DNA from: Escherichia coli
GTDB taxonomy: Bacteria; Pseudomonadota; Gammaproteobacteria; Enterobacterales; Enterobacteriaceae
NCBI RefSeq assembly: GCF_003018255.1
Contig: NZ_CP027440.1
Reading direction: 5' to 3' (one strand)
DNA length: 64,000 bases
The position numbers were made by a program, and so were the translations under genes. The first letter of the stretch is position 1. Each line of letters begins with the position of its first letter. Of this stretch, positions 23,687 to 50,248 are shown one piece after another. The notes beneath the pieces are model-generated. The model searched no databases, had not been told where the DNA came from, and saw only the letters and a program-made list of their open reading frames with translations.

Positions 23687-23695
23687 TGCAGGAAA

Positions 23696-23719
23696 GCAGG
23701 CTGGAGTTATCCAGCCTGC
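23696..23719 (+). terminator. hairpin after tyrB (GCAGGCTGG-loop-CCAGCCTGC)
   Basis: Inverted repeat immediately after tyrB stop; no strong T-run. Confidence 0.5.
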
Positions 23720-23907
23720 AGTGAAATTAAACTGTCGTCGCTTTCACTCTTGCTTTATAGATGATTTTTTTGATGCCATCGTTCTACGTGAGAGGTAATA
23801 AAACGTTGTTAGTTCTAACTTGTTAAGTTTATCCCAATGTTCTGGAGTACTTTTCCCTGTTTTACCGTGTGGAATAATAATTTTTGCACATCTAACCATT
23901 ATTAAAT

Positions 23908-24411
23908 TTAATAATAAGTATCGGGTTTGTTACGATAGAATTTTTCTATATCCTCAAGAATATGCTTTGCCTTATTGCCTGTGACTATCTGAGATTCAAT
24001 TATAGTATCGTTAAATTCTAAAGTTAAAGAGAACTCTTTTTTTCCGCTTTGTGTAAGTTTAACCTTATATTGATTACCAATATCAAATAAAAAGGTCCTG
24101 TAATGAGAATAATCACCTTTAACCTCCTCGGCAAAACAGCAAAGCGTGCAAATATACATACAATCTTTCTTACCCCTGATTTTGTTAACTAAATCAATAA
24201 ATGCGTGAAAAACTGTACTTGCAATAGAACTTGATACTTCTTCTCCAGGTCTACAAAAATCTTTTGCAATTTTTAACTGTGTTTCTATATATAAAAAGAG
24301 ATCTTTGGCATAAGAGAAATCTTTGGCATAAGAGATACCTTTGTTATTTAGTGTATCTAGCTCTACAGGTAAAGATGTCGTGTTGTTGCTATTCACATTT
24401 GATATATTCAT
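23908..24411 (-). CDS. hypothetical protein in AT-rich tyrB-aphA interval (167 aa from SD-preceded ATG; longest ORF 180 aa to 24450)
   Basis: ORF track 23908..24450; AAGGAGA 7 nt upstream of ATG at 24411; no recognisable domain; region visibly AT-rich. Confidence 0.55.
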   Translation of the reverse strand: MNISNVNSNNTTSLPVELDTLNNKGISYAKDFSYAKDLFLYIETQLKIAKDFCRPGEEVSSSIASTVFHAFIDLVNKIRGKKDCMYICTLCCFAEEVKGDYSHYRTFLFDIGNQYKVKLTQSGKKEFSLTLEFNDTIIESQIVTGNKAKHILEDIEKFYRNKPDTYY

Positions 24412-24532
24412 ATCATCATCTCCTTCGGGAGTAATAAAATTAGTCACCATTGTAGGGTAGGGGGCTGGTCAATCAGAAATCATCTTTATAAACTTCGATT
24501 GTTTTGTAATGCTGTATCATTAAGTTTATTAA

Positions 24533-25525
<993 letters not shown>

Positions 25526-39145: not shown

Positions 39146-39420
<275 letters not shown>

Positions 39421-39449
39421 GTTACCGACTCGCATCGGGCAATTGTGGG

Positions 39450-49840: not shown

Positions 49841-50240
49841 GCCGGGGATATCCACCCGGCAATATGTGGATGCCTGATGCGACGCTTACCGCGTCTTATC
49901 AGGCCTACGCCAGACTGCGCAATAGCTTGATTTAGGGTGATTTTGTAGGTCGGATAAGGCGTTTACGCCGCATCCGACATCAATATCTGATGCGACGCTT
50001 GCCGCGTCTTATCAGGCCTACGCCAGACTGCGCAATAGCTTGATTTAGGGTGATTTTGTAGGTCGGATAAGGCGTTTACGCCGCATCCGACATCAATATC
50101 TGATGCGACGCTTACCGCGTCTTATCAGGCCTACGCCAGACTGCGCAATAGCCTGATTTAGCGTGATTTTGTAGGTCGGATAAGGCGTTTACGCCGCATC
50201 CGACATCAATGCCTGATGCGACGCTTACCGCGTCTTATCA
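49841..50240. repeat. BIME array: about 3.5 tandem 113-bp units of paired REP elements between gltP and yjcO
   Basis: TGATGCGACGCTT recurs at 49875, 49988, 50101, 50214. Confidence 0.92.
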
Positions 50241-50248
50241 GGCCTACC

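Follow-up and report, generated by a model that had tools for sequence, protein, structure and literature searches.

A probable low-diversity coding minisatellite in yjbS, an Escherichia coli-restricted gene shortened in K-12

The tyrB-aphA spacer and its AT-rich island

The stretch of DNA analysed here, hereafter the window, comprises 64 kb of the Escherichia coli chromosome and corresponds to the alr-tyrB-aphA-uvrA region; the surrounding ORFs are alr, tyrB, aphA, yjbQ, yjbR and uvrA, and an AT-rich island lies between tyrB and aphA. This spacer was delimited by a GC scan and by genome searches at positions 23687-24811; its GC content is about 30%, versus about 50% in the flanks, and it is called here the yjbS island from the gene that it carries.

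A 911-bp query taken from the island (23690-24600) found a match in 4,357 of 5,426 complete E. coli genomes, about 80%, and a single genome, that of strain DETEC-S792, matches it with 100% identity. The island is missing in the remaining 20% or so, most of which have another insert at this position; across E. coli the tyrB-aphA site is found in three states, namely the yjbS island, a larger insert and a short spacer of about 336 bp. The larger insert, present in about 1,040 genomes, contains a sensor kinase and a sigma-54-dependent regulator beside aphA; the short spacer is found in 19 genomes and in one genome IS1 takes the place of the island. The KguS/KguR genomic island of UPEC (c5032-c5041) has been described as inserted between tyrB and aphA (PMC3694859), that is, at the same chromosomal site as the yjbS island, but its cargo is unrelated and much larger. 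The larger insert observed here, likened to it by site and gene types, is consistent with the published position of the KguS/KguR island; this insert and the yjbS island appear to be mutually exclusive.

The corresponding region of K-12 appears in the literature as a 'promoter island' that is bound by H-NS and connected with DNA predicted to be foreign (PMC3661553), and the AT-rich, H-NS-bound DNA bearing yjbS was probably acquired. An Rfam search of the island returned nothing credible. The tyrB stop codon is directly followed, at 23696-23719, by a GC-rich hairpin with perfect pairing (GCAGGCTGG-AGTTAT-CCAGCCTGC). With tyrB and yjbS converging on it from either side, this hairpin could act as a terminator for both; it is not called by a simple terminator scan because it has no T-run.

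The full-length yjbS frame and its broken alleles

The island contains a minus-strand ORF of 167 codons plus stop at 23908-24411, whose product begins with MNISNV and matches K-12 YjbS over its first 46 residues or so. The open frame extends from 23908 to 24450, where an in-frame upstream ATG would give a protein of 180 aa; this codon lacks a Shine-Dalgarno sequence, whereas a Shine-Dalgarno-like GGAG, read from the sequence at 24420-24423 on the minus strand, precedes the MNIS start codon by 8 nt. The internal ATG at 24411, giving 167 aa, is the likely start. On the plus strand, an antisense ORF of 67 aa (24231-24434, TTG start), which would read DLWHKR/NLWHKR across the repeat described below, was considered as a coding frame and rejected because it is interrupted in many alleles.

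At the aligned position RefSeq annotates yjbS, a gene for a 67-aa product ('protein YjbS'), in K-12-type genomes. The ORF of the window belongs to yjbS both by genomic position and by orthologous sequence: locus, strand and start codon are the same, the first 46 residues or so are nearly identical, and DNA identity between K-12-type genomes and the window is 93% over the island. The difference in length is due to a 1-bp deletion, corresponding to the plus-strand C at window position 24254, which in K-12-type alleles shifts the minus-strand frame after ...IAKDF and leads to a stop at 67 aa; further on, a run of seven T is also reduced to six. The window allele is instead intact, with 167 aa and two repeat units, compared with one unit (b, see below) in K-12. 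The aligned sequences thus indicate that K-12 yjbS is a truncated, degraded form of the gene and that the window carries its intact version.

The annotation of other strains is affected by this shortened protein. In PGAP annotation, intact yjbS alleles appear either as pseudogenes flagged 'frameshifted' or as two separate features; this flag is an artefact, since the truncated K-12 protein is the PGAP reference. The locus had been described in the earlier note as an orphan ORF, a term which holds in that no family match and no homologue outside Escherichia could be found, but not in the sense of an unannotated gene, the ORF being full-length K-12 yjbS. Profile searches of the ORF in Pfam, NCBIfam and PADLOC gave no match, and those in PHROG gave marginal matches only (best E=0.007). 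Two very large protein searches retrieved Escherichia sequences and fragments only, with no homologue elsewhere; two long unrelated proteins that appeared in the homology searches matched short low-complexity stretches and were discarded. An exact 23-mer scan of species-representative genomes gave two chance matches only (Nautiliaceae and Flavobacterium) and left the E. coli representative itself unmatched, so that it says little about other Escherichia. A structural search with the ORF also found no informative fold match.

The AlphaFold2 (AF2) model of the protein, derived from a shallow alignment of 10 sequences, is of moderate confidence (pLDDT 69.6, pTM 0.67). Full-length YjbS has no signal peptide and no surface features in its sequence. 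A cysteine cluster, C84-x3-C88-x2-C91-C92 with an additional C53, is encoded at 24136-24162 (residues 84-92) and is missing from the truncated K-12 product; it might bind a metal.

The frame is open in 14 of 21 sampled alleles. Pairwise dN/dS among the intact ones ranges from 0.18 to 0.72, and the minimal changes in the gene comprise 12 synonymous and 18 nonsynonymous substitutions, versus a neutral ratio of 1:4.1 (binomial p=0.008). These values show the minus-strand frame to be real and under some purifying selection. Independent lesions are found in K-12-type, O157-type, D6, XYEH3934, ECNB21 and APEC20/16 alleles, several of them at the T7 homopolymer (A7 on the coding strand) that allele alignment locates inside the minus-strand ORF at 24037-24043. 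This run has shrunk to T6 in the K-12-like, ECNB21 and APEC20/16 alleles, and in O157 a 10-bp deletion takes it out altogether; the homopolymer forms a second, recurrent mutational hotspot which, unlike the 18-bp repeat, breaks the frame. The K-12 and O157 types together represent about 44% of the sampled island carriers, and yjbS is dispensable and decaying in many lineages.

Two published observations concern the K-12 gene: yjbS was scored as 'essential' by TraDIS only (PMC5821084), and two macrophage-evolved populations both yielded small-colony variants with an identical IS1 insertion in the gene (PMC4999529). Both the TraDIS call and the IS1 insertion may reflect DNA accessibility or insertion-site preference rather than a function of the protein.

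The same data bear on the possibility that the ORF is non-functional today, its repeat being a minisatellite without selective effect in AT-rich DNA that was acquired horizontally, is decaying and happens to have kept the frame open. This is what would be expected from a gene lacking homologues outside Escherichia as well as any family or fold match, independently disrupted in the six allele types named above, called a pseudogene by PGAP and located in an H-NS-associated promoter island that about 20% of genomes do not have. However, 167 open codons at 30% GC, where about 8% of random codons are stops, would arise by chance with a probability of about 1e-6, and the depletion of nonsynonymous changes, the GGAG upstream of the start and the persistence of intact alleles across about 8% DNA divergence are all at odds with it; the PGAP flag, in turn, derives from the truncated reference. 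A loss of function in present-day E. coli is accordingly considered rather unlikely.

The 18-bp repeat and its copy number across strains

Near its 5' end, the yjbS ORF contains two 18-nt units in head-to-tail orientation, namely unit a (ATCTTTGGCATAAGAGAA on the plus strand) at 24301-24318 and unit b (ATCTTTGGCATAAGAGAT) at 24319-24336, which differ in their last base only. The earlier note had placed two copies of ATCTTTGGCATAAGAGA at 24301-24317 and 24319-24335, and reading of the sequence showed these positions to be exact. On the plus strand the order is ...AAAAAGAG ATCTTTGGCATAAGAGAA ATCTTTGGCATAAGAGAT ACCTTTG..., with partial units on both sides (AGAG before and ACCTTTG after) that account for an additional 0.6 copy; indeed, Tandem Repeats Finder (TRF) reports a tract at 24297-24343 with period 18, 2.6 copies, 89% matches, no indels and a score of 73. 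By TRF, the feature is a head-to-tail direct repeat whose unit exceeds the 10 bp or so expected of a VNTR. With up to 3 mismatches allowed, the unit occurs in the 64 kb at these two sites only, versus 0.01 expected from 100 shuffles, and for periods 4-30 the window has no longer exact tandem run than this one, of 17 bases, whereas 20 Markov-simulated sequences of 64 kb reached 9-12 bases.

On the coding strand, the minus strand, unit b (ATCTCTTATGCCAAAGAT) is translated first as ISYAKD, residues 26-31, and unit a (TTCTCTTATGCCAAAGAT) follows as FSYAKD, residues 32-37; the codons are ATC TCT TAT GCC AAA GAT and TTC TCT TAT GCC AAA GAT, giving ISYAKD-FSYAKD at residues 26-37 of the 167-aa ORF. 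The six-residue duplication with conserved frame that had been noted as SYAKDF/SYAKDL is this same pair read one residue out of phase. In the AF2 model, residues 26-37 are found at the start of a helix (28-52) that follows a low-confidence N-terminus; the hexapeptides would thus lie where a predicted disordered N-terminus gives way to the first long helix. The motif recurs a third time in degenerate form (ATCTTTTGCAAT, encoding IAKD(F)) at 24259-24270, 42 nt from the array; this copy is in frame and out of the 18-nt register, and it may be coincidental or may represent an old, dispersed copy.

Two larger tandem arrays are found elsewhere in the window, at 39148-39428 (period 91, 3.1 copies) and at 49874-50247 (period 113, 3.3 copies). 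Their consensus contains palindromes of the GCCGGATAAGGCG...GCATCCGGC type and they look like REP/BIME elements.

The repeat could also act at the DNA level, for instance as paired, iteron-like sites for a regulator of aphA or of yjbS, its coding property being incidental. The dense promoter-like, H-NS-bound character of the K-12 region is in line with such a role, against which stand the position of the array within the coding sequence, some 75 nt past the start codon of the ORF and some 475 nt away from the start of aphA, the lack of dyad symmetry and of any Rfam match, and the absence of the unit elsewhere in the window. The promoter and terminator scan performed no better than shuffles: promoter-like sites were 5, versus 5.7±2.7 in shuffled sequences, and none of them covers the repeat on the coding strand. 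Taken together, these points make a regulatory site very improbable. A reading of the TGGCA within the unit as part of a sigma-54 promoter was rejected by eye, no -12 element being found at the correct spacing.

Copy number was determined by a census of the same 5,426 complete genomes, whose sampling of lineages is biased, with queries made of repeat units only. Copy classes were set by E-value cut-offs, which resolve the different tract lengths cleanly; a coverage statistic (>=80%) was unusable for this purpose because out-of-register partial matches are joined into one place. The unit is present in 4,348 genomes. At least two copies (E <= 1e-7) were scored in 2,271 genomes and at least three (E <= 1e-16, a-type query) in 45, to which a c-type query added 6 further three-copy genomes, since the a-type query misses divergent c- and d-type arrays such as that of OkiPb01698. 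A single genome, SW4848, has at least four copies, and unit parsing gave exactly four (a-b-b-b). One copy is thus present in about 2,077 genomes, two in about 2,220, three in at least 50 and four in one, with a few divergent alleles that could be misclassified by the cut-offs; one or two copies are found in 98.8% of the carriers and the copy-number diversity index is about 0.51. All sampled K-12-type genomes, in which yjbS is annotated, have a single copy.

Alignment of six length classes revealed 0, 18 or 36 extra bases, located exactly at the repeat, and alleles with 1, 2, 3 and 4 units produce open ORFs of 161, 167, 173 and 179 aa, respectively. Two independent assemblies of strain d1-58 agree in having three copies each, and no instability within a clone was seen.

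The suggestion that the copy number can vary between strains was borne out: it ranges from one to four, changes by whole units only and differs among alleles with near-identical flanks. The converse, that the duplication is fixed and ancient, with all related genomes having exactly two copies, deserves almost no credence. An old duplication is indeed evident in the common c-b allele, whose units differ at 3 of 18 positions, and most genomes have one or two copies; however, alignment of related genomes showed that all states from one to four exist, and expanded arrays occur in at least 51 genomes, in at least 7 arrangements and on several flank backgrounds. Variability is nevertheless low, and much of the split between one and two copies could be old and bound to lineages.

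Evolution of the array and its meaning for yjbS

Four plus-strand unit variants can be distinguished: a (...GAGAA), b (...GAGAT), c (ATCTTTAGCATAAGAAAA) and d (ATCTTTGGCATAAGAAAA). Read on the coding strand, b gives ISYAKD, whereas a, c and d, which differ from each other by synonymous changes only, give FSYAKD. These units are combined in one-copy arrays (b and d), two-copy arrays (a-b, as in the window, c-b and d-b(star)), three-copy arrays (a-b-b, a-a-b, c-c-b, c-d-b, d-d-b and d-d-b(double star)) and the four-copy array a-b-b-b, and the tract measures 61, 79, 97 or 115 nt only. When all single duplications and deletions were enumerated, each expanded array proved to be the product of a one-step 18-nt duplication of a shorter array that is itself observed, and the one-copy b and d alleles the products of one-step deletions. 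Starting from c-b, a breakpoint at offset 0-6 generates c-c-b, and one at offset 7-15 generates c-d-b; d is thus the predicted hybrid unit.

In a neighbour-joining (NJ) tree built on the flanks only, close clades have mixed copy numbers, namely {c-b, c-c-b, c-d-b}, {b, a-a-b, d-d-b} and {a-b, a-b-b, a-b-b-b}. Expanded alleles are therefore present on several flank backgrounds, indicating that gains and losses have recurred; at least six independent copy-number events are implied, a number which recombination between flank backgrounds could inflate.

Our main reading, to which we assign a probability of roughly 85%, is that the feature represents a low-diversity, in-frame coding VNTR, or minisatellite, in the E. 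coli-restricted gene yjbS, evolving by misalignment of its repeats. Misalignment of units, by replication slippage or by unequal recombination, would add or remove exactly one 18-nt unit per event, and the partial flanking units would offer the microhomology that allows one-copy alleles to duplicate as well. Since 18 is a multiple of 3, each event would correspond to one [I/F]SYAKD hexapeptide and the frame would never be shifted. The origin by slipped-strand mispairing proposed in the earlier note finds support in the whole-unit steps, the one-step products and the hybrid unit, all of which unequal recombination fits too; we infer slippage rather than RecA-mediated unequal exchange, and functional near-neutrality of the changes in repeat length.

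The array could instead be a selected tuning device, in which full-length YjbS has its activity, partner binding or geometry set by how many [I/F]SYAKD hexapeptides are present, and selection rather than drift keeps the alleles. The recurrence of expansions, the purifying selection on the ORF, the purely synonymous differences among a, c and d and the open frame of every copy-number allele would all be compatible with tuning. However, an 18-bp unit preserves the frame automatically, so that frame preservation is uninformative on selection; when rare variants are included, the differences between units amount to about 3 synonymous and 5 nonsynonymous changes, indistinguishable from neutrality; the copies range from one to four only; and independent lesions have disrupted the gene in many lineages, the K-12 and O157 types together accounting for the 44% or so of sampled carriers given above, and in K-12 it lies in H-NS-bound, silenced DNA (PMC3661553). 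Tuning is accordingly judged improbable, and antigenic variation is unlikely since YjbS has neither a signal peptide nor surface features. In its full form, this proposal sees full-length YjbS as a working E. coli-specific protein, which could be for example an orphan immunity-like or a small regulatory protein with a CxxxCxxCC cluster, and the hexapeptide array as a length-adjustable linker or helix cap whose gains and losses are kept by selection; its chances of being right seem small.

The coding VNTR that we favour can be compared with known repeat systems. In Staphylococcus aureus, the 24-bp repeats of spa are an in-frame coding minisatellite that changes by slipped-strand mispairing. The yjbS repeat resembles minisatellites of this type in that the unit is a multiple of 3, whole units are gained and lost, hybrid units are formed and the alleles are informative for typing. 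Minisatellites of the spa type, however, are usually found in surface or secreted proteins and in many copies; the yjbS protein has no export signal and its array has one to four copies. With phase-variable contingency loci the repeat shares the mutational process, namely misalignment, but these loci switch expression through the frame or the promoter spacing. A phase-variation on/off switch was thus rejected for yjbS: the 18-bp unit corresponds to 6 codons and cannot shift the frame, all alleles are in frame, and the repeat lies within the CDS and not in the promoter.

In E. coli itself, the MLVA loci CVN002 and CVN007 of the GECM panels (Lindstedt scheme) have 18-bp units, and formulas and primers are available (PMC8143711). 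Like the yjbS repeat, they are chromosomal tandem repeats of 18-bp period with a strain-variable copy number, which in their case is used for typing, and the allele range of 1-4 and the diversity index of about 0.51 place yjbS close to the low-variability GECM loci. With up to 3 mismatches allowed, the 64-kb window has no binding site for any of the 20 GECM-10 primers; the yjbS repeat is therefore a different locus, and its identity with one of the GECM-7/10 typing loci (CVN001-CVN017, CCR001) was rejected.

Taken alone, the repeat is a routine coding tandem repeat, of little importance as a mechanism. It is nonetheless a clean VNTR not listed before, in which the order of the a, b, c and d units records the duplication events, and it could be used as a low-resolution lineage marker. 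The tyrB-aphA site gains detail as a variable hotspot with three states, the yjbS island, a KguS/KguR-type island and a short spacer. If the tuning proposal were true, yjbS would be a rare bacterial example of a coding minisatellite that tunes a cytoplasmic protein, and one hidden by the frameshifted stump of K-12. Of the by-products, the new reading of yjbS itself is the most useful: the K-12 gene is the frameshifted remnant of an orphan gene for a protein of 161-179 aa, which in many other E. coli is intact and under purifying selection, and the bias that the K-12 reference introduces in the annotation of this locus is worth correcting.
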